A stretch of DNA of 64,000 nt from Escherichia coli (lineage in GTDB: Bacteria; Pseudomonadota; Gammaproteobacteria; Enterobacterales; Enterobacteriaceae). A program made the translations under genes and the position numbers. The stretch lies in NCBI RefSeq assembly GCF_009931435.1, contig NZ_CP043414.1; one strand, written 5' to 3'. The notes under the pieces were generated by a model that made no database searches, was not told the origin of the DNA, and worked only from the letters and a program-made list of their open reading frames with translations. Below are positions 2,723-44,689 of this stretch, piece after piece (the first letter of the stretch is position 1; each line of letters begins with the position of its first letter).

Positions 2723-3151
2723 TTGACCACAACTGTATCTATTCATCCGTTACCTGAAATTTTGCTGCTAACTCACGGCGGCTGGGGGCTGCAGCTCTGC
2801 AACAGTCTGCGCATGGTGATGGGCGAAATCGAAGGCGTGACGGAAATCGCGCTGATGCCTGTCGATACGCTGGGCGAGTTTTACCAGCGCGTCGAAGCCG
2901 TGGTGAAAACCATGCCAGAAGGTTCGCTTATCGTGACCGATTTTATCGGCGGCACCACCTCTAACGTGGCGGCGCGGCTGAGCGCCGATTATCCGGTGGC
3001 GGTGATCTCCGGGCTTAATGCCTCGCTGCTGCTGGAGGCGCTGGACAAGCGCGAACATGGCCCACTGACCGCCTGCGTGGCCGATCTGGTGGAAGCTGGG
3101 CGCAACAGTTGCCTGGACGTCGTCTCCCATATTCGTCAATTACAACAGTAA
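2723..3151 (+). CDS. dgaA: PTS mannose-family EIIA component
   Basis: 142 aa; LLLTHGG N-terminal His motif typical of EIIA-Man; TTG start 5 nt after AAGGAGG; the first ATG would delete the His motif. Confidence 0.8.
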   Translation: MTTTVSIHPLPEILLLTHGGWGLQLCNSLRMVMGEIEGVTEIALMPVDTLGEFYQRVEAVVKTMPEGSLIVTDFIGGTTSNVAARLSADYPVAVISGLNASLLLEALDKREHGPLTACVADLVEAGRNSCLDVVSHIRQLQQ

Positions 3152-10205: not shown

Positions 10206-10227
10206 TCGGTAAGATGCTTTGTGAGAA

Positions 10228-10423
<196 letters not shown>

Positions 10424-10425
<2 letters not shown>

Positions 10426-11332
10426 ACTTAGTAGAGATAAACGGAACTGTACTGCCGGGGATCATGGTATCGGGTAGCTTACCGTCCCAACGCTCAGCAG
10501 TGGTGAGGGCAACAAGTCCGGGATTATCCCGCAGAGCTTCACCGCGCAGGCGGATCGCTTCTGCTTCAGCCGCACTTTTTAAACGAATAGTTTCAGCCTC
10601 TGCCGCGCCTCTTACGCGAATAGTCTCAGCTTCTGCTTTGGCTGCCGCCAGTTTACTGTCTGCTTCTGCCTGGGCCTGAGTTACCGCTATTTGCGCCTGG
10701 ATTTTCTCTGTTTCCAGATTTTGCTTACGTGTGGCAATGGCGACTTCTGCTTTCATTCGATCTTCAATCGATTTTTCATAAGCGTCAGAAAAATCAATAT
10801 TTTCAATCTGGACACCATCAATCACCACCGGGCCAACAACGGCTTTACGCATTGCATTTTGCAGATCCTGAACCAGTTTTGTACGATCCTGTACCGCGCT
10901 GATGGCGGTATATTGGCCGAAAACGTTCTCCAGTTGGGTTGGCAGCTGGCGGACGATCAGACGCTCTTTTAAAGATTCAATGGTGTTGTAGGTTGTATAA
11001 ACTGCGCCAGCTTCTGAAGGCTTAATATGAAAACTAACCGACACGGTCATTTGTGCCGGTTGCTGGTCGCGGCTGTAGGCCTGTAATCCCTGATAAACCA
11101 CAGCCTGATTACGCGTGGAAATTTTCTCTACGCTTTCCATAAAAGGGATCTTAAAACCCAGACCCGGCTCGGCAACTTTTACGATTTTTCCGTAGCGCAG
11201 CAAAATGCCGCGTTCACCTTCATTAACGGTGTAATACGAGAGAAATGGCAGCACAACCACGGTAAGCACGCCAATGGCGATAGCAATAGATTTTTGTGGG
11301 CGAAATGAGGTTATTGAAACAGGCGCTTTCAT
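10424..11332 (-). CDS. SPFH/band-7 (prohibitin/stomatin-like) membrane protein
   Basis: 302 aa; N-terminal TM segment, SPFH-like core, C-terminal Ala/Glu-rich repeats (AEAETIRVRGAAEAETIRLKSAAEAEAIRLRGEA); not in the K-12 tktA-cmtB gap as I recall it. Confidence 0.8.
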
Positions 11333-11707
11333 GAGAATCTTCCTTGAGTAAAGTGTGGGAATATGTCACATGAGGTGAGGAGAAAACAGCCAACAGGTGA
11401 GAATTCAGAATCTATAAAGGGGGAGAGCGAAAAACATCGGCTAAAAAAGTATGTTTTCGAACATTCAATAGATAAATAGAGATATGCATCACAAATACAT
11501 AGGCAGATAAAACATTGGTTTTGTGATAAACATAACAAACACAAACTTGACTTTATAAGTATAAATTTCATGTTGTTGTTATTTAACATTTTATTATTTT
11601 GGTTCATGTTTTTTTTCTTCTCGCGTGCCCAATTGCTTTCATTAAATCGCACGAGTATTTTATTTTTACCGCCGGACGGTACCCTAAAAATAAAATAAGG
11701 ATAATTT

Positions 11708-12151
11708 ATGCGGCTTATTGATTATTTTCCAGAATCATCAATCTCAGTTATACATTCAGCAAAAGATTGGCAGGAAGCTATCAATTTCTCGATGGCATCA
11801 TTGCTGGATAAAAACTATATCAGCGAGAATTACATTCAGGCTATTAAAGATTCCACCATTAACAATGGCCCTTATTATATTCTCGCACCAGGCGTGGCAA
11901 TGCCTCATGCGCGACCGGAATGTGGGGCGCTTAAAACCGGGATGTCTTTGACGTTACTTAAACAAGGCGTTTATTTTCCGGGGAATGACGAACCGATTAA
12001 ATTACTTATCGGTCTTTCTGCTGCCGATGCCGATTCGCACATTGGCGCTATTCAGGCGTTAAGTGAATTGCTGTGCGAAGAAGAAATACTTGAACAACTC
12101 TTAACTGCAACATCAGAAAAACAATTAGCGGACATTATCAGCCGCGAATAA
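11708..12151 (+). CDS. cmtB: cryptic mannitol-family PTS EIIA
   Basis: 147 aa; synteny with cmtA. Confidence 0.9.
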   Translation: MRLIDYFPESSISVIHSAKDWQEAINFSMASLLDKNYISENYIQAIKDSTINNGPYYILAPGVAMPHARPECGALKTGMSLTLLKQGVYFPGNDEPIKLLIGLSAADADSHIGAIQALSELLCEEEILEQLLTATSEKQLADIISRE

Positions 12152-12178: not shown

Positions 12179-13567
12179 ATGGAAAACAAGTCTGCTCGTG
12201 CAAAGGTCCAGGCTTTTGGGGGCTTTTTGACGGCAATGGTCATCCCCAATATTGGTGCTTTTATTGCCTGGGGTTTTATTACTGCATTATTTATTCCTAC
12301 TGGTTGGCTGCCTAACGAACATTTCGCCAAAATTGTCGGCCCGATGATTACCTATTTATTGCCCGTAATGATTGGTTCTACCGGTGGCCATTTAGTCGGC
12401 GGTAAACGCGGCGCAGTCATGGGCGGAATAGGGACAATTGGTGTAATCGTCGGCGCAGAAATCCCGATGTTCCTTGGTTCAATGATCATGGGACCGTTAG
12501 GTGGGCTGGTCATAAAATATGTCGATAAGGCACTGGAAAAACGCATACCTGCTGGTTTTGAGATGGTTATCAATAACTTCTCATTAGGTATCACCGGGAT
12601 GCTCCTTTGTCTGCTGGGTTTTGAAGTTATCGGCCCGGCGGTGTTAATTGCCAATACTTTCGTCAAAGAGTGTATTGAGGCGCTGGTACATGCGGGCTAT
12701 CTGCCTTTGCTGTCAGTCATCAATGAACCGGCGAAAGTGCTTTTCCTCAATAACGCGATAGATCAGGGCGTCTATTACCCGTTGGGGATGCAACAGGCTT
12801 CAGTTAACGGTAAATCCATCTTCTTTATGGTGGCGTCCAACCCTGGGCCTGGCTTAGGACTGCTGCTGGCGTTTACTTTGTTTGGTAAAGGGATGAGTAA
12901 ACGTTCTGCGCCCGGGGCGATGATTATTCACTTCCTCGGTGGGATCCACGAACTGTATTTCCCGTATGTGCTGATGAAGCCGCTGACCATTATTGCCATG
13001 ATTGCCGGCGGTATGTCTGGCACCTGGATGTTTAACTTACTGGACGGTGGTCTGGTGGCTGGTCCAAGTCCGGGGTCTATCTTTGCTTACCTTGCACTGA
13101 CGCCGAAAGGCTCGTTCCTGGCGACAATTGCCGGTGTTACGGTAGGTACCCTGGTGTCCTTTGCTATCACTTCCGTAATACTGAAGATGGAAAAAACGGT
13201 GGAAACGGAGAGCGAAGATGAGTTTGTGCAGTCCGCCAATGCGGTTAAGGCGATGAAACAAGAAGGTACATTCTCGTTAAGCCGGGTTAAGCGTATCGCC
13301 TTTGTTTGCGATGCGGGAATGGGCTCTAGCGCGATGGGCGCAACCACCTTCCGTAAGCGCCTGGAAAAAGCGGGGCTGGCAATAGAAGTAAAACATTACG
13401 CGATAGAAAACGTGCCTGCAGATGTGGATATCGTCGTTACTCACGCTAGTCTGGAAGGGCGCGTGAAACGTGTGACGGATAAACCGCTGATATTGATTAA
13501 TAACTATATTGGCGATCCCAAACTCGACACTTTATTTAATCAATTAACCGCTGAACATAAAAACTGA
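12179..13567 (+). CDS. cmtA: cryptic mannitol-family PTS EIICB
   Basis: 462 aa membrane protein with C-terminal EIIB domain. Confidence 0.9.
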   Translation: MENKSARAKVQAFGGFLTAMVIPNIGAFIAWGFITALFIPTGWLPNEHFAKIVGPMITYLLPVMIGSTGGHLVGGKRGAVMGGIGTIGVIVGAEIPMFLGSMIMGPLGGLVIKYVDKALEKRIPAGFEMVINNFSLGITGMLLCLLGFEVIGPAVLIANTFVKECIEALVHAGYLPLLSVINEPAKVLFLNNAIDQGVYYPLGMQQASVNGKSIFFMVASNPGPGLGLLLAFTLFGKGMSKRSAPGAMIIHFLGGIHELYFPYVLMKPLTIIAMIAGGMSGTWMFNLLDGGLVAGPSPGSIFAYLALTPKGSFLATIAGVTVGTLVSFAITSVILKMEKTVETESEDEFVQSANAVKAMKQEGTFSLSRVKRIAFVCDAGMGSSAMGATTFRKRLEKAGLAIEVKHYAIENVPADVDIVVTHASLEGRVKRVTDKPLILINNYIGDPKLDTLFNQLTAEHKN

Positions 13568-13581
13568 TTGCCGAGGTAAAA

Positions 13582-14859
13582 ATGAAAACCAAAGTTGTTG
13601 CTATTTATGGCAAGCGGGATGTCCGTCTGCGCGAATTTGAACTGCCCAAAATTACCGATAATGAACTGCTGGTGAGTGTAATTTCTGACAGTGTGTGTTT
13701 ATCGACCTGGAAAGCGGCGTTACTCGGTAGCGAACATAAACGCGTGCCCGACGATTTAGAAAATCATCCGGTCATTACCGGGCATGAATGTGCCGGGATT
13801 ATTGTTGAAGTGGGGAAAAATCTTACCGACAAATATAAAAAAGGCCAACGTTTTGTATTGCAACCGGCGATGGGGCTACCAAGCGGGTATTCTGCGGGAT
13901 ACAGCTACGAATATTTTGGCGGTAACGCCACCTATATGATTATTCCAGAGGTAGCCATTAATTTGGGCTGCGTATTACCGTATCACGGATCTTATTTTGC
14001 TGCGGCGTCGCTGGCAGAGCCGATGTGCTGCATTATTGGCGCTTATCATGCCAATTATCACACCACGCAATATGTTTATGAGCATCGCATGGGCGTCAAA
14101 CCTGGCGGCAATATTGCGCTGCTGGCGTGTGCGGGCCCGATGGGGATAGGCGCTATCGATTACGCTATTCACGGCGGCATACAACCGTCGCGGGTAGTGG
14201 TGGTCGATATCGACGACAAACGCCTGGCACAGGTGCAGAAGCTGCTGCCGGTGGAGCTGGCGGCCAGCAAAGGCATTGAGCTGATATATGTGAATACCAA
14301 AGGAATGGCCGATCCGGTACAGAAGCTGCGGGCGCTGACAGGAGATGCTGGGTTCGATGACATTTTTGTTTATGCGGCGGTGCCTGCTGTCGTTGAGATG
14401 GCTGACGAATTACTGGCGGAAGATGGCTGCCTGAACTTCTTTGCCGGGCCGACGGATAAAAACTTCAAAGTGCCGTTTAATTTCTACAACGTCCATTACA
14501 ACAGCACGCACGTCGTCGGTACATCGGGTGGTTCAACGGACGATATGAAAGAGGCGATTGCCCTGAGCGCCACGGGGCAGTTGCAACCGTCGTTTATGGT
14601 GACGCATATCGGTGGCCTGGATGCAGTGCCAGAAACCGTTCTCAATTTACCGGATATCCCCGGTGGTAAAAAACTCATTTACAACGGCGTTACCATGCCG
14701 CTCACCGCCATTGCCGATTTTGCCGAAAAAGGCAAAACCGATCCGCTGTTTAAAGAGCTGGCGCGGTTAGTTGAGGAAACGCACGGCATCTGGAATGAAC
14801 AGGCCGAGAAATATCTGCTGGCACAATTTGGCGTTGATATCGGGGAGGCCGCGCAATGA
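13582..14859 (+). CDS. yggP: zinc-type alcohol/polyol dehydrogenase family protein
   Basis: 425 aa; MDR-family features; synteny. Confidence 0.85.
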   Translation: MKTKVVAIYGKRDVRLREFELPKITDNELLVSVISDSVCLSTWKAALLGSEHKRVPDDLENHPVITGHECAGIIVEVGKNLTDKYKKGQRFVLQPAMGLPSGYSAGYSYEYFGGNATYMIIPEVAINLGCVLPYHGSYFAAASLAEPMCCIIGAYHANYHTTQYVYEHRMGVKPGGNIALLACAGPMGIGAIDYAIHGGIQPSRVVVVDIDDKRLAQVQKLLPVELAASKGIELIYVNTKGMADPVQKLRALTGDAGFDDIFVYAAVPAVVEMADELLAEDGCLNFFAGPTDKNFKVPFNFYNVHYNSTHVVGTSGGSTDDMKEAIALSATGQLQPSFMVTHIGGLDAVPETVLNLPDIPGGKKLIYNGVTMPLTAIADFAEKGKTDPLFKELARLVEETHGIWNEQAEKYLLAQFGVDIGEAAQ

Positions 14860-15821
14860 TGTCCCTGGCGTGGCCATTATTTCGCGTTACGGAGCAGGCA
14901 GCGTTGGCTGCCTGGCCGCAAACCGGATGTGGCAACAAAAATAAAATTGATGGCCTGGCGGTCACCGCGATGCGCCAGGCATTAAACGATGTCGCTTTTC
15001 GTGGGCGAGTGGTTATCGGCGAGGGAGAAATTGACCATGCGCCGATGCTGTGGATTGGCGAAGAGGTGGGCAAAGGCGATGGGCCAGAAGTCGATATCGC
15101 GGTTGATCCCATTGAAGGTACGCGGATGGTGGCGATGGGGCAGAGCAATGCGCTGGCGGTCATGGCTTTCGCCCCTCGAGATAGCCTGTTACACGCGCCC
15201 GATATGTATATGAAAAAACTGGTTGTTAATCGGCTGGCGGCGGGCGCGATTGATCTGTCTTTGCCTCTGGCGGACAACTTGCGCAACGTGGCGAAAGCGT
15301 TGGGCAAACCGCTGGACCAGCTACGTATGGTTACGCTAGATAAACCGCGCCTGAGAGCCGCAATTGAGGAAGCGACACAACTGGGCGTGAAGGTTTTTGC
15401 CCTGCCGGATGGCGATGTCGCCGCCAGCGTGCTGACCTGCTGGCAAGATAATCCTTACGACGTGATGTACACCATCGGTGGCGCGCCGGAAGGTGTTATT
15501 TCTGCCTGTGCTGTTAAAGCATTGGGTGGGGATATGCAGGCCGAGCTGATTGATTTTTGTCAGGCAAAAGGGGATTACACGGAAAATCGGCAGATTGCAG
15601 AGCAGGAGCGCAAGCGTTGCAAGGAAATGGGCGTTGACGTTAACCGTGTGTACTCGCTCGATGAACTGGTGAGGGGGAACGATATCCTCTTTAGCGCTAC
15701 GGGCGTGACGGGCGGTGAGTTGGTGAACGGTATCCAACAGACGGCGAATGGGGTGCGGACGCAGACATTACTGATCGGCGGCGCGGACCAAACGTGTAAT
15801 ATAATAGACTCCCTGCATTGA
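14856..15821 (+). CDS. yggF: class II fructose-1,6-bisphosphatase (GlpX paralog)
   Basis: 321 aa; start overlaps yggP stop (ATGATG); GlpX-like. Confidence 0.85.
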   Translation: MMSLAWPLFRVTEQAALAAWPQTGCGNKNKIDGLAVTAMRQALNDVAFRGRVVIGEGEIDHAPMLWIGEEVGKGDGPEVDIAVDPIEGTRMVAMGQSNALAVMAFAPRDSLLHAPDMYMKKLVVNRLAAGAIDLSLPLADNLRNVAKALGKPLDQLRMVTLDKPRLRAAIEEATQLGVKVFALPDGDVAASVLTCWQDNPYDVMYTIGGAPEGVISACAVKALGGDMQAELIDFCQAKGDYTENRQIAEQERKRCKEMGVDVNRVYSLDELVRGNDILFSATGVTGGELVNGIQQTANGVRTQTLLIGGADQTCNIIDSLH

Positions 15822-15842: not shown

Positions 15843-16352
15843 ATGGCGACGCTGACAGAAGATGATGTGCTTGAGCAACTGGACGCACAGGACAATTTAT
15901 TGTCATTTATGAGAACTACACATGTCATTTTGCTCCAGGGGATACGCCAGTTTCTGCCGTCGCTGTTTGTCGATAATGATGAAGAGATCGTGGAATATGC
16001 AGTGAAGCCGTTACTCGCTCAAAGCGGCCCGCTTGACGATATTGATGTTGCGCTACGTTTGATTTTTGCGCTGGGGAAAATGGACAAATGGCTGTATGCC
16101 GATATCACGCACTTTTCCCAGTTCTGGCATTACCTGAATGAACAGGATGAAACGCCCGGATTTGCCGATGACATTACCTGGGATTTTATCAGCAACGTCA
16201 ATAGCATAACCCGCAATGCGACGCTCTATGACGCGTTAAAAGCGATGAAGTTCGCTGATTTCGCCGTCTGGTCAGAGGTGCGTTTTAGTGGGATGGTCAA
16301 AACGGCGCTGACGCTGGCAGTAACGACCACCTTAAAGGAATTAACGCCGTGA
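15843..16352 (+). CDS. yggD: MtlR-like transcriptional regulator
   Basis: 169 aa; synteny. Confidence 0.8.
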   Translation: MATLTEDDVLEQLDAQDNLLSFMRTTHVILLQGIRQFLPSLFVDNDEEIVEYAVKPLLAQSGPLDDIDVALRLIFALGKMDKWLYADITHFSQFWHYLNEQDETPGFADDITWDFISNVNSITRNATLYDALKAMKFADFAVWSEVRFSGMVKTALTLAVTTTLKELTP

Positions 16353-17062
16353 AAATCGAACTGACGGTGAATGGATTGAAGGTACAGGCGCAGTACCCGA
16401 ACGAAGAGATTGAAAATGTGCATAAACCGTTGCTGCGTATGCTGGCAGCCTTACAGACGGTAAATCCGCAGCGGCGTACCGTGGTTTTTCTTTGCGCTCC
16501 GCCGGGGACGGGTAAATCTACCCTAACCACTTTCTGGGAATATCTCGCGCAACAAGACCCGGAACTACCCGCTATTCAGACGCTGCCGATGGATGGTTTT
16601 CACCATTACAATAGCTGGCTGGATGCGCATCAATTGCGCCCCTTTAAAGGCGCACCAGAGACATTCGATGTGGCAAAACTGGCGGAAAATCTGCGCCAGG
16701 TAATGGAAGGGGATTGTACGTGGCCGCAGTACGATCGACAAAAGCATGATCCTGTTGAAGATGCGTTGCACGTTACCGCACCACTCGTCATCGTCGAAGG
16801 AAACTGGTTGTTGCTGGATGACGAGAAGTGGCGCCAGCTTGCGCAATTTTGTGATTTCTCGATCTTTATCAACGCGCCAGCTACTGCGTTGCGGGAACGA
16901 CTGGTGGGGCGCAAGCTGGCGGGAGGGTTATCGCTGGCAGACGCAGAAGCCTTTTATGACCGTACCGATGGGCCGAATGTTCGCCGGGTGCTGGAAGAGA
17001 GTCTGCCTGCAAATTTGACCTTAATGATGACCGCTACGGGTGAATATCGTCTGGTGGATTAA
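16349..17062 (+). CDS. yggC: P-loop nucleoside/sugar kinase-family protein
   Basis: 237 aa; GTG start; Walker A PPGTGKST. Confidence 0.85.
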   Translation: MKIELTVNGLKVQAQYPNEEIENVHKPLLRMLAALQTVNPQRRTVVFLCAPPGTGKSTLTTFWEYLAQQDPELPAIQTLPMDGFHHYNSWLDAHQLRPFKGAPETFDVAKLAENLRQVMEGDCTWPQYDRQKHDPVEDALHVTAPLVIVEGNWLLLDDEKWRQLAQFCDFSIFINAPATALRERLVGRKLAGGLSLADAEAFYDRTDGPNVRRVLEESLPANLTLMMTATGEYRLVD

Positions 17063-43191: not shown

Positions 43192-43219
43192 TCTCCCGGT
43201 TTTTTCGCCGGGAGATTTT
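43192..43219 (+). terminator. rho-independent terminator after ubiI
   Basis: tctcccgg-ttttttcg-ccgggaga followed by tttt. Confidence 0.6.
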
Positions 43220-43594
43220 CCTCATTTGAAATAAACTAATTTCACCTCCGTTTTCGCATTATATTTTCTAATGTCACGAATTTTTGATTTAGTGTTTTTT
43301 GACATTTTTTCAGTTCTTAATGTTGTCTTATTCAAATTAACTTTCTCATCTAATTATCTTTGTATAGAGAATGGTCGTTTTTTGGTTTTTTATTCTGTTG
43401 CAATTTTGACGTTTTTTAACCATAAGCTAATGTGATGTTTAATTTTACCTTATGGTTAACAGTCTGTTTCGGTGGTAAGTTCAGGGAAAAGAGAACGATT
43501 GCGTTGGGGACCGGGAGTGGCTCCGATGCTGGGTTTCGTGGTGATAATTTCACCATGAAAAAGTTGTCAGCCCCGCTTATTCAATGAGGACAAG
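43220..43594 (+). promoter_or_regulatory. long AT-rich gcvTHP control region
   Basis: 375-bp AT-rich leader upstream of gcvT; the gcv promoter is known to carry multiple regulator sites, but individual sites were not mapped here. Confidence 0.4.
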
Positions 43595-44689
43595 ATGGCA
43601 CAACAGACTCCTTTGTACGAACAACACACGCTTTGCGGCGCTCGCATGGTGGATTTCCACGGCTGGATGATGCCGCTGCATTACGGTTCGCAAATCGACG
43701 AACATCATGCGGTACGTACCGATGCCGGAATGTTTGATGTGTCACATATGACCATCGTCGATCTTCGCGGCAGTCGCACCCGGGAGTTTCTGCGTTATCT
43801 GCTGGCTAACGATGTGGCGAAGCTCACCAAAAGCGGCAAAGCCCTTTACTCGGGGATGTTGAATGCCTCTGGCGGTGTGATAGATGACCTTATCGTCTAC
43901 TACTTTACTGAAGATTTCTTCCGCCTCGTTGTTAACTCCGCCACCCGCGAAAAAGACCTCTCCTGGATTACCCAACACGCTGAACCTTTCGGCATCGAAA
44001 TTACCGTTCGTGATGACCTCTCCATGATTGCCGTACAAGGGCCGAATGCGCAGGCAAAAGCTGCCACACTGTTTAATGATGCTCAGCGTCAGGCGGTGGA
44101 AGGGATGAAACCCTTCTTTGGCGTGCAGGCGGGCGATCTGTTTATTGCCACCACCGGTTATACCGGTGAAGTGGGCTACGAAATTGCGCTGCCCAATGAA
44201 AAAGCGGCGGATTTCTGGCGTGCGCTGGTGGAAGCGGGCGTTAAGCCCTGCGGTCTGGGCGCTCGTGACACACTGCGTCTGGAAGCGGGTATGAATCTGT
44301 ATAGCCAGGAGATGGACGAAACTATTTCTCCTTTAGCCGCCAACATGGGCTGGACCATCGCCTGGGAACCGACTGATCGTGACTTTATCGGTCGTGAAGC
44401 TCTGGAAGCGCAGCGTGAACATGGCACAGAAAAACTGGTTGGTCTGGTGATGACCGAAAAAGGCGTGCTGCGTAATGAACTGCCGGTACGTTTTACCGAT
44501 GCGCAGGGCAATCAGCATGAAGGCATTATCACCAGCGGTACTTTCTCCCCGACGTTGGGTTACAGCATTGCGCTGGCACGCGTGCCGGAAGGTATTGGCG
44601 AAACGGCGATTGTGCAAATTCGCAACCGTGAAATGCCGGTAAAAGTGACGAAACCTGTTTTTGTGCGTAACGGCAAAGCCGTCGCGTGA
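43595..44689 (+). CDS. gcvT: glycine cleavage system T protein (aminomethyltransferase)
   Basis: 364 aa. Confidence 0.97.

Follow-up and report, generated by a model that had tools for sequence, protein, structure and literature searches.

What does the strikingly AT-rich DNA between a prohibitin-like gene and cmtB do in Escherichia coli, and does its base composition betray foreign, silenced DNA? We addressed this question within a contiguous stretch of 64 kb of E. coli DNA (hereafter, the window), in which the genes of interest follow one another in the order tkt, prohibitin, cmtB, cmtA, yggP, and glpX-like. The gap itself (positions 11333-11707) corresponds exactly to the interval between the minus-strand prohibitin open reading frame (10424-11332) and plus-strand cmtB (beginning at 11708); the two genes thus form a divergent pair separated by 375 bp, as the original prediction had it. 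Our analysis indicates that the gap is a composite of two parts with different origins, and that its AT-richness is an ordinary and largely already known feature, namely that of a control region whose operon is known to be regulated by CRP. The allele of this control region found here is already annotated in RefSeq.

With regard to composition, the expectation of strong AT-richness was confirmed. The gap has a GC content of 32.5% against 52.0% for the whole window, merely 0.36% of all 375-bp segments in the 64 kb reach this value or lie below it, and the lowest segment of that size (30.1%) begins within the gap, at position 11442. One other spot in the window, the ubiI-gcvT intergenic region (∼43.0-43.6 kb), is nearly as AT-rich. 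The flanking genes had been described as GC-normal, which is appropriate for the prohibitin gene (48.6%) but not for cmtB, whose GC content amounts to just 41.9%. Inside the gap, the left part (11333-11445, 113 bp) contains 42.5% GC, whereas the right part (11446-11707) contains 28.2% over 262 bp, an AT content far above the genome average when set against the 52% of the window; in a core spanning 11441-11620, the GC content falls to 23.9%. There are six runs of at least 8 bp that consist of A and T only, e.g. eight consecutive Ts at 11609-11616, and the A/T-only run TAAAAATAAAATAA occupies 11685-11698.

The left part belongs with the upstream gene. The latter encodes a 302-aa member of the prohibitin/SPFH (Band 7) family on the minus strand (10424-11332; Pfam PF01145, E = 3e-30) and is annotated in RefSeq as 'prohibitin family protein'. 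A 2-kb query across this gene was matched over at least 80% of its length in 1814 of 5426 complete E. coli genomes, and between tkt and cmtB the gene was found in Escherichia only, being missing from this place in all non-Escherichia loci. To judge from this distribution, the prohibitin gene is accessory; homologues with ∼70% amino-acid identity reside on Enterobacter and Kosakonia plasmids. The spacer that separates tkt from the prohibitin gene (10206-10423) contains REP/BIME-like sequence, on either side of which lies a copy of the hairpin GGGCCGCGAAAGCGGCCC (at 10228-10245 and at 10402-10419); the right-hand copy is followed by a run of six Ts and resembles a terminator (site at 10400-10421). 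An Rfam ES036 match at 10312-10354 exceeds the gathering threshold of that family (48.9 bits), while a naRNA4-like match at 10223-10308 stays under its threshold. This spacer constitutes the left end of a segment that is missing in K-12, where a simple tkt terminator is found instead. At the opposite end, 11333-11445 comprises the 5' leader and the presumed promoter of the prohibitin gene on the minus strand, including a Shine-Dalgarno sequence (AAGGAAG, 11339-11345). This stretch is kept among prohibitin-bearing alleles and is without counterpart in K-12 or the outgroups, in which the tkt terminator adjoins the cmt control region. A prohibitin cassette has thus probably entered the Escherichia lineage at the junction of the tkt terminator with the cmt control region, and it is this insertion that made a formerly one-way control region divergent.

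The original prediction took the AT-richness as the mark of xenogeneic DNA, and the accessory nature of the prohibitin neighbour, together with its plasmid-borne relatives, speaks in favour of that view. However, it is the other part of the gap that is AT-rich, and this part is ancestral. The segment 11446-11707 aligns collinearly with the DNA between tkt and cmtB in K-12 and in over 10 enterobacterial genera; syntenic counterparts occur in Citrobacter, Salmonella arizonae, Salmonella diarizonae, Raoultella, Lelliottia, Silvania, and others, and the GC fraction between -270 and -90 relative to the cmtB ATG was 0.21-0.33 in every genus compared. The order tkt-cmtB-cmtA-yggP was kept in 37 out of 38 full-length loci (seven from E. 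coli plus 31 found with CmtB); one locus had too short an upstream flank, and a Vibrio locus matched through cmtB alone. Among the E. coli genomes, 5422 of 5426 contained the AT-rich part at the same site, as either of two allele classes, and the patchy distribution expected upon horizontal acquisition was thus not observed for it, neither in this species nor across the >10 genera. In addition, the accessory cassette end is less AT-rich than the ancestral part, and the control region of core genes at ubiI-gcvT looks equally AT-rich. The right 262 bp are consequently ancestral: they hold the promoter and regulatory sequences of the enterobacterial cmtBA-yggPFDC operon, on the plus strand. More generally, AT-richness alone is a poor indicator of foreign origin: at this locus, the AT-rich DNA is ancient and the inserted part lies nearer to normal GC.

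What, then, does the ancestral part control, and how? Two CRP-like sites stand out in it, AGAGATATGCATCACA at 11478-11493 (site 1; 12.3 bits) and TGTGATAAACATAACA at 11522-11537 (site 2; 15.5 bits), whose centres precede the cmtB ATG by 222.5 and 178.5 bp, respectively, and which are hence 44 bp apart. Scores refer to a weight matrix built from 106 CRP sites defined by ChIP-seq, with the cmtB site excluded and a training median of 13.0 bits. Site 2 is the second-best match to this matrix in the 64-kb window, and site 1 has a weak left half (AGAGA). These similarities to the TGTGA-N6-TCACA consensus are above chance, given that among 5000 shuffles of the gap the top score was reached by three and the second-best score by one. 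Conservation of the two sites points in the same direction: the offsets of -222.5 and -178.5 are identical in K-12, Citrobacter, Salmonella, and Silvania, site 1 being kept at its position in most genera; 61 matches of at least 8 bits were counted over 33 loci, compared with 3.8 expected from shuffles; and a pair spaced by exactly 44 bp was present in 21 of these 33 loci. In an alignment of 24 sequences, the CRP half-sites emerged as conserved blocks within an otherwise scrambled core. B2-type alleles (E2348/69, E02) deviate in that their site 2 scores below 8 bits.

Published experiments attest to CRP action at this locus. The K-12 site CGTGTTGTAGATCACA upstream of cmtBA-yggPFDC, which has the same offset as site 1 here, was recovered by genomic SELEX with CRP, and the activity of a K-12 cmt promoter fusion was lower in a crp mutant (PMC3105977). 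In enterotoxigenic E. coli (ETEC) H10407, a CRP ChIP-seq peak was detected at cmtB in vivo (PMC4287617). CRP binding and crp dependence are known for the K-12-type allele only, whose core is 52% identical to that of the present allele, on which CRP presumably acts in the same manner. cAMP-CRP would bind both sites, 11478-11493 and 11522-11537, and, once bound, would raise transcription from a weak, non-consensus sigma70 promoter, which would make the region a catabolite-controlled promoter.

As to the position of this promoter, the best candidate for cmtB is TTGCTT-17-TATTTT, whose putative -35 hexamer (TTGCTT, 11633-11638; TTGATT in other genera) follows a TTG(C/A)TT pattern conserved in 24/24 aligned sequences, and whose putative -10 hexamer (TATTTT, 11656-11661) is embedded in a block, CACGAGTATTTTATTTTTACC (11650-11670), that is nearly invariant across genera. 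The spacer between the two hexamers varies in sequence but measures 17 bp in all of the 24 sequences except that of E. albertii, where it is 16 bp long. Further upstream, the same alignment revealed two footprints, CTTGACTT at 11546-11553, with a TTG invariant across genera, and TGTTGTTATT at 11574-11583, with a nearly invariant TTGTT. With the TTGCTT/TATTTT pair, transcription is predicted to start near 11668 and to yield a leader of ∼40 nt; this A-rich leader would be followed by the cmtB Shine-Dalgarno sequence (AAGGA, 11697-11701), which precedes the ATG at 11708 by 6 nt and is conserved across genera. The hexamer pair is weak (7/12 consensus matches) and a consensus promoter scan, at its threshold, picked up nothing promoter-like in the gap, which together fit an activator-dependent promoter. 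A relaxed scan yielded many weak candidates, as expected for AT-rich DNA, of which TTG(C/A)TT-17-TATTTT was the sole pair conserved in place. Measured from its predicted start, the CRP sites would be centred at about -139 and -183, which differs from the classical class I and class II geometries. Alternative upstream starts (∼11571-11592) would place CRP at -41.5 or -61.5, yet the corresponding -10 elements lack conservation among the genera. A search of one Cappable-seq supplement returned no coordinates matching the cmt region. Taken together, we regard it as likely that the gap combines an ancestral, CRP-controlled cmt promoter on the right with the end of an inserted prohibitin cassette on the left.

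The unusual distance of the CRP sites bears on the explanation originally put forward, according to which the DNA of the gap is xenogeneic and coated by H-NS/StpA, with silencing as its main role and as the reason for the cryptic status of cmt. Elsewhere, e.g. at papBA and bgl, CRP is known to counteract H-NS from distal sites, and a similar role here would be in keeping with the odd -139/-183 geometry. The composition, too, is suited to H-NS (28% GC over 262 bp, adjoining a cmtB gene with 42% GC), and the DNA is rich in weak promoter-like hexamers. H-NS may bind to this AT-rich DNA. Against silencing as the main role, CRP was found on the K-12-type region in H10407 in vivo, and in that same study H-NS filaments excluded CRP where they formed (PMC4287617). 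Besides, the sole match to the H-NS nucleation motif TCGATAAATT within the gap (11469-11478) has two mismatches and is at background level, in a scan that was itself non-discriminating (83 matches against 62 expected window-wide). Neither cmtB nor cmtA has an entry in the accessible H-NS datasets: a full-text literature search combining cmtB or cmtA with H-NS found no occupancy data, accessible ChIP tables for H-NS/StpA do not list the tkt-cmtB locus, the supplements of Srinivasan 2015 and of the IPOD-HR paper contain no cmt entry, Higashi 2016 lists neighbouring genes only and not cmt, and a chromatin paper from 2025 makes no mention of cmt. Together with the synteny and the equally low GC content in >10 genera described above, and with the inducibility and selection of the cmt genes described below, these observations leave the silencing explanation doubtful, although it deserves some residual weight. 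Repression that is specific to the operon, e.g. by its own MtlR-family protein YggD, may also operate.

The term 'cryptic' is itself overstated. The genes cmtB (11708-12151, plus strand; PTS EIIA, Pfam PF00359) and cmtA (12179-13567, plus strand; PTS EIICB, Pfam PF02378 and PF02302) are the first of the controlled operon (NCBIfam NF007358, equivalog level), and cmtBA-yggPFDC as a whole specifies a mannitol-family PTS transporter, a zinc dehydrogenase, a GlpX-type phosphatase, and an MtlR-family protein. With dN/dS ratios of 0.03-0.05 for cmtA and ∼0.16 for cmtB, both genes are, by this measure, under strong purifying selection. Furthermore, the K-12 promoter is activated by CRP (PMC3105977) and occupied by it in H10407 (PMC4287617), and cmtB was induced 4- to 8-fold in enterohaemorrhagic E. 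coli (EHEC) in bovine gut contents relative to M9-glucose (PMC6199705). The 'cryptic' cmt genes are thus better described as a conserved, selected, and catabolite-controlled operon.

The same observations bear on the possibility that AT-richness and hypervariability reflect decay, i.e. that the promoter of an unused operon is drifting towards AT and has no function. Variability is indeed considerable. The core (11446-11625) is just 52% identical to K-12 and likewise 52% identical to E. albertii, it shares 62-80% identity with other prohibitin-bearing E. coli and cryptic-clade alleles, and the other alleles of the E. coli collection are between 60% and 100% identical to it; besides, cmtA is frameshifted in one strain. 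Yet, the CRP half-sites, the -35/-10-like hexamers, the leader, and the Shine-Dalgarno sequence have all been retained in genera between which synonymous sites are saturated (dS above 1.5), the spacing of these elements is fixed, and the coding genes are under purifying selection. The footprints have largely refuted decay already, and we consider it very unlikely. There are two haplotypes with sharp boundaries (10206 and ∼11625), of which the K-12 type was present in 3594 and the prohibitin-linked type in 1828 of the 5426 E. coli genomes. A donor of the K-12-type core was not found among the sampled outgroups, none of which exceeded 54% identity to it. While a minor point, it is of some interest for population genomics that two E. 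coli control-region haplotypes, with and without the prohibitin cassette, have diverged by ∼48% and nevertheless precede cmtBA genes that are 91-99% identical, with the same CRP site architecture in each.

Could the gap instead encode a product of its own, be it a 107-aa protein, another small protein, a small RNA, or a leader or attenuator based on an inverted repeat? A 107-codon frame on the minus strand (11329-11652) is open in this strain, with its stop overlapping the prohibitin ATG (ATGA). The original prediction considered it spurious, and rightly so: this frame is interrupted by 2 to 13 stops in eight other, diverged alleles (L003-L006, L009-L011, and L023), is open elsewhere among prohibitin-bearing alleles in one near-identical strain only, lacks a Pfam match, and is not annotated in RefSeq. 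A shorter frame of 22-30 codons is open through 11607/11633-11696; however, it has no Shine-Dalgarno sequence, and the codons of its variable part change residues freely (PPDG, TLTR, TTGC) without amino-acid conservation, so we dismissed a leader peptide in this frame. A perfect 13-bp inverted repeat, TATTTTATTTTTA - 16 bp - TAAAAATAAAATA (11656-11697), immediately precedes the Shine-Dalgarno sequence and overlaps the candidate -10 hexamer and the leader, its arms being conserved around a variable 16-bp spacer in Escherichia, Citrobacter, Salmonella, and Silvania. At the RNA level, however, the fold (-10.1 kcal/mol, z = -0.2) was no better than that of shuffled sequences, covariation did not go beyond controls, with the inner hairpin pairing in just 53% of cells, and an Rfam search of the gap gave no family up to E = 1. 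A structured RNA leader, attenuator, or small RNA was rejected on these grounds, and we deem it exceedingly improbable that the gap encodes a product of its own.

The inverted repeat might alternatively act at the DNA level. Speculatively, it could serve as an operator for YggD, the MtlR-family protein of the operon itself (annotated as 'fumE'), with the distal tandem CRP sites counteracting repression or silencing in place of a classical class I/II contact, an arrangement to which we assign a low probability. To our knowledge, no DNA target has been defined for the MtlR regulator family. An operator common to cmt and mtlA was rejected, given that the K-12 region upstream of mtlA lacks a similar motif.

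Comparison with characterized systems places the region in context. The closest relative is the cmtB promoter region of K-12 and ETEC H10407, which represents the same locus upstream of the same operon (Shimada 2011, PMC3105977; Haycocks 2015, PMC4287617). The last 82 bp before the ATG differ between K-12 and the present allele by a single mismatch, and K-12 has two CRP-like sites at the same offsets (-222.5 and -178.5) as well as the same candidate -35/-10 hexamers, leader, and Shine-Dalgarno sequence. In contrast, the 180-bp core is only 52% identical, the CRP sites read AGAGATATGCATCACA and TGTGATAAACATAACA here and CGTGTTGTAGATCACA and TGTAATATGCATCACG in K-12, and the upstream neighbour is the divergent prohibitin cassette with its REP elements here, whereas in K-12 the region abuts the tkt terminator. 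The paralogous mannitol PTS operon mtlADR of E. coli, with its repressor MtlR, likewise has several CRP sites over a long upstream region (two CRP ChIP-seq peaks, at yibI and mtlA, and four predicted sites; PMC4287617), and an MtlR-family gene inside the operon is common to mtl and cmt. Unlike cmt, the mtl upstream region is not AT-rich by eye, and it has no sequence motif in common with cmt, TATTTTATTTTTA included. Moreover, in the cmt operon EIIA is split from EIICB and the downstream enzymes are different.

Resemblance to bgl is of another kind. This PTS operon, cryptic under laboratory conditions, has an AT-rich silencer upstream and a weak CRP-dependent promoter; it has been demonstrated that H-NS binds to it and silences it, and that an inserted IS element or a mutation in hns activates it. 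The cmt operon, too, is a PTS operon that has been called cryptic in the laboratory, and it combines AT-rich upstream DNA with a weak CRP-dependent promoter, yet it differs from bgl in that its control region is positionally conserved between genera and that CRP is bound in vivo on the K-12-type allele. Finally, the two haplotypes recall the intergenic 'regulatory switching' by recombination that Oren et al. reportedly described for E. coli in PNAS in 2014, inasmuch as two mutually exclusive upstream haplotypes precede near-identical coding genes. At cmt, however, the two CRP sites and the core promoter are found in both haplotypes and what changes is the upstream neighbour; the regulatory logic is thus kept in either case, and rewiring is therefore not evident.

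The gap at 11333-11707, between the prohibitin (SPFH) gene and cmtB, probably combines, on its left, one end of a prohibitin cassette that was inserted here with, on its right, an ancestral promoter region that would be under cAMP-CRP control. Its bounds on this stretch of E. coli chromosome are exact: the minus-strand neighbour is a 302-aa ORF (10424-11332; SPFH/Band 7, PF01145, "prohibitin family" in RefSeq), the plus-strand neighbour is cmtB (11708-12151), and the two are divergent and 375 bp apart, as the original prediction had it. The strong AT-richness claimed for the gap was likewise borne out: its GC content is 32.5% vs 52.0% for the window, a value as low or lower in only 0.36% of all 375-bp windows over the 64 kb, and the lowest-GC 375-bp stretch of all (30.1%) starts at 11442. 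GC falls to 23.9% across the core (11441-11620), and the gap holds six A/T-only runs of 8-14 bp. Calling the flanks GC-normal was only partly apt, as they are unequal (prohibitin gene 48.6%, cmtB 41.9%). The sole other spot of comparable AT-richness in the window, and its second most AT-rich, is the ubiI-gcvT intergenic control region (43025-43635; minimum 31.7% GC), where core genes are served, too.

The tkt-cmtB gap of K-12 is 313 bp long and gene-free, its AT-rich region adjoining the tkt terminator. Across the 32 loci of a CmtB scan with one genome per species, the order tkt-cmtB-cmtA-yggP is kept in Citrobacter, Salmonella enterica arizonae and diarizonae, Raoultella, Lelliottia, Silvania, Superficieibacter, Huaxiibacter, and Enterobacter (the upstream flank of the Phytobacter locus is too short to reveal tkt), while tkt-prohibitin-cmtB was seen only in Escherichia, being found in some E. 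coli, E. albertii, E. whittamii, and one cryptic-clade strain. When prohibitin-bearing alleles are aligned with outgroups, homology begins only at ∼11446; to the left lies the tkt terminator in outgroups and K-12, and the 5' region of the gene in prohibitin alleles. For this reason, 11333-11445 (42.5% GC) is the cassette end, and 11446-11707 (28.2% GC) is the ancestral control region of cmt. The cassette gene has relatives with ∼70% amino-acid identity on Enterobacter and Kosakonia plasmids. The AT-richness had been taken as a mark of xenogeneic DNA, a reading that fails for the AT-rich part, which is ancestral and on testing did not display this foreign-origin feature. Rather, since GC at positions -270 to -90 upstream of cmtB is 21-33% in every genus sampled, low GC is a long-standing, maintained trait of this control region, with no trace of recent import.

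Further observations concern the surroundings and the sampled loci. The spacer at 10206-10423, between the prohibitin gene and tkt, consists of REP/BIME-like DNA, with an Rfam match to ES036 (10312-10354) above and a naRNA4-like match (10223-10308) below the gathering score; the hairpin GGGCCGCGAAAGCGGCCC occurs twice, bracketing the spacer (10228-10245 and 10402-10419), and K-12 has a plain tkt terminator at this position instead. Enterobacterial tkt-cmtBA or cmtB sequence also occurs at L031 and L037, on contigs labelled Chryseobacterium sp. 18061 and Alkalicoccobacillus porphyridii, with CmtB identities of 74% and 96%, respectively; these assemblies are probably contaminated.

CRP-like sites were scored with a weight matrix built from 106 published ETEC H10407 ChIP-seq sites, the cmtB site excluded (training median 13.0 bits). 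Site 1 (11478-11493; 12.3 bits) is centred 222.5 bp and site 2 (11522-11537; 15.5 bits, the second best of the 64 kb) 178.5 bp before the cmtB ATG. Shuffling the gap 5000 times attained the top score in 3 cases and the second-best score in 1. K-12 has CRP-like sites of other sequence at identical offsets (14.0 and 13.2 bits), as do Citrobacter, Salmonella, and Silvania, with small leader indels displacing those of Raoultella and Lelliottia. Over 33 loci, 61 matches of at least 8 bits were counted vs 3.8 expected, and 21 of these loci have paired matches exactly 44 bp apart. In an alignment of 24 sequences, the half-sites stand out as conserved blocks, with freely variable N6 spacers and inter-site DNA. 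This pattern agrees with the literature on the K-12-type allele: CRP genomic SELEX recovered CGTGTTGTAGATCACA upstream of cmtBA-yggPFDC, a crp mutant showed reduced activity of a K-12 cmtB promoter fusion (PMC3105977), and a CRP ChIP-seq peak in ETEC H10407 maps to the SELEX-recovered site (PMC4287617). The top matrix match of the whole window, TTTGATACCCATCACA (43170-43185; 15.8 bits), falls in the ubiI-gcvT region; gcvT is itself a listed CRP SELEX target (Shimada 2011, PMC3105977).

Downstream of the CRP-like sites, the alignment footprints comprise CTTGACTT (11546-11553), TGTTGTTATT (11574-11583), CAATTGCTTTCATT (11630-11643), CACGAGTATTTTATTTTTACC (11650-11670), GTACCCTAAAAATAAAATA (11679-11697), and the cmtB Shine-Dalgarno sequence. 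A TTG(C/A)TT + TATTTT pair is kept in 24/24 aligned sequences around a spacer that varies in sequence and measures 17 bp in 23/24 (16 bp in E. albertii). Conserved hexamers with a variable spacer look like a classic sigma70 promoter signature, predicting a transcription start at ∼11668 and a leader of ∼40 nt. With 7/12 consensus matches the pair is weak, and a consensus promoter scan of the gap gave no match, both of which would agree with an activator-dependent promoter. However, this start would place the CRP-like sites at about -139 and -183, a geometry that does not fit the otherwise consistent picture. Candidate starts further upstream would restore class I or II CRP distances, yet the -10 elements of these candidates are not maintained from genus to genus.

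The 107-codon ORF (11329-11652, minus strand) is spurious, as had been suspected: eight other alleles interrupt its frame with 2 to 13 stop codons, it matches no Pfam family, and RefSeq does not annotate it. With E up to 1 allowed, no Rfam family matched the gap. A 13-bp inverted repeat (11656-11697) has a fold no more stable than those of shuffled sequences (z = -0.2), shows no covariation, and has an unconserved inner hairpin; the sequence of both arms is conserved, and the spacer between them varies.

Among 5426 complete E. coli genomes, the core falls into two mutually exclusive classes: a K-12-type (3594 genomes, nearly all at least 95% identical to each other) and a very heterogeneous prohibitin-linked one (1828 genomes). 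Prohibitin-linked cores match the window at 99% or more in 11 genomes, at 80-90% in 1346, and at 60-80% in 471; its exact allele is thus rare. The window and K-12 cores share 52% identity, a distance equal to that of either from Salmonella, while in 100-bp steps identity to K-12 is 94-100% in tkt and 88-99% in cmtBA (dS 0.1-0.2). The divergent block (10206-11625 vs 2770-3000 of the K-12 locus) has sharp edges at 10206 and ∼11625. This pattern requires either recombination with a distant lineage that replaced one allele, for which no donor was found among the sampled outgroups, or a very old polymorphism. The CRP architecture is the same in both classes.

The plus-strand operon runs from cmtB (PTS EIIA, NF007358 equivalog) through cmtA (PTS EIICB, 12179-13567), yggP (zinc dehydrogenase, 13582-14859), and a GlpX-type phosphatase (14856-15821) to an MtlR-family gene (15843-16352) and a kinase-like one (16349-17062). 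From E. coli to Lelliottia, cmtA (dN/dS 0.03-0.05) and cmtB (∼0.16) are under strong purifying selection, and EHEC growing in bovine gut contents shows a 4- to 8-fold rise of cmtB (PMC6199705); the operon is in use in nature. The annotated cmtA frameshift of the K-12-type strain 455 (L007 2054-3452) is isolated decay in an otherwise conserved operon. The fifth gene matches the MtlR family clearly (PF05068, E = 2e-51; NCBIfam product 'putative DNA-binding transcriptional regulator'), an uneasy pairing with its RefSeq name fumE, fumarase E. Inside yggP, the sigma54-type sequence CTGGCGGCAATATTGCG (14102-14118) is one base off an intragenic sigma54 site that ChIP mapped within K-12 yggP (PMC4591121). 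Nac ChIP-seq peaks are reported within K-12 cmtA and yggP, and after Nac induction cmtA rose 5.8-fold and yggP fell ∼28-fold (PMC5217608). Two ABC ATPases and ECF T and S components (17034-∼19700, minus strand) directly follow yggC in the near-identical strain R32_14_1F.

On composition, H-NS binding to the gap is plausible. The cmt locus is not listed in searchable published H-NS occupancy tables, and a nucleation motif scan did not distinguish the gap. In H10407, CRP is bound in vivo at cmtB, and H-NS filaments exclude CRP where formed (PMC4287617). This binding, cmtB inducibility in EHEC, and purifying selection on cmtA and cmtB argue indirectly against complete H-NS occlusion, at least of the K-12-type allele.

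The gap feature is real, correctly placed, ordinary, and largely known already. The bgl operon is H-NS-silenced and defined by H-NS occupancy and derepression in hns mutants; any likeness to it would be by analogy only. The paralogous mtl region resembles the cmt region in its several upstream CRP sites and MtlR-family gene, yet the two have no sequence motif in common. Nearest among known objects is this locus as it stands in K-12, where it is already listed as a target of CRP, and the region probably works as other catabolite-controlled sugar promoters do.
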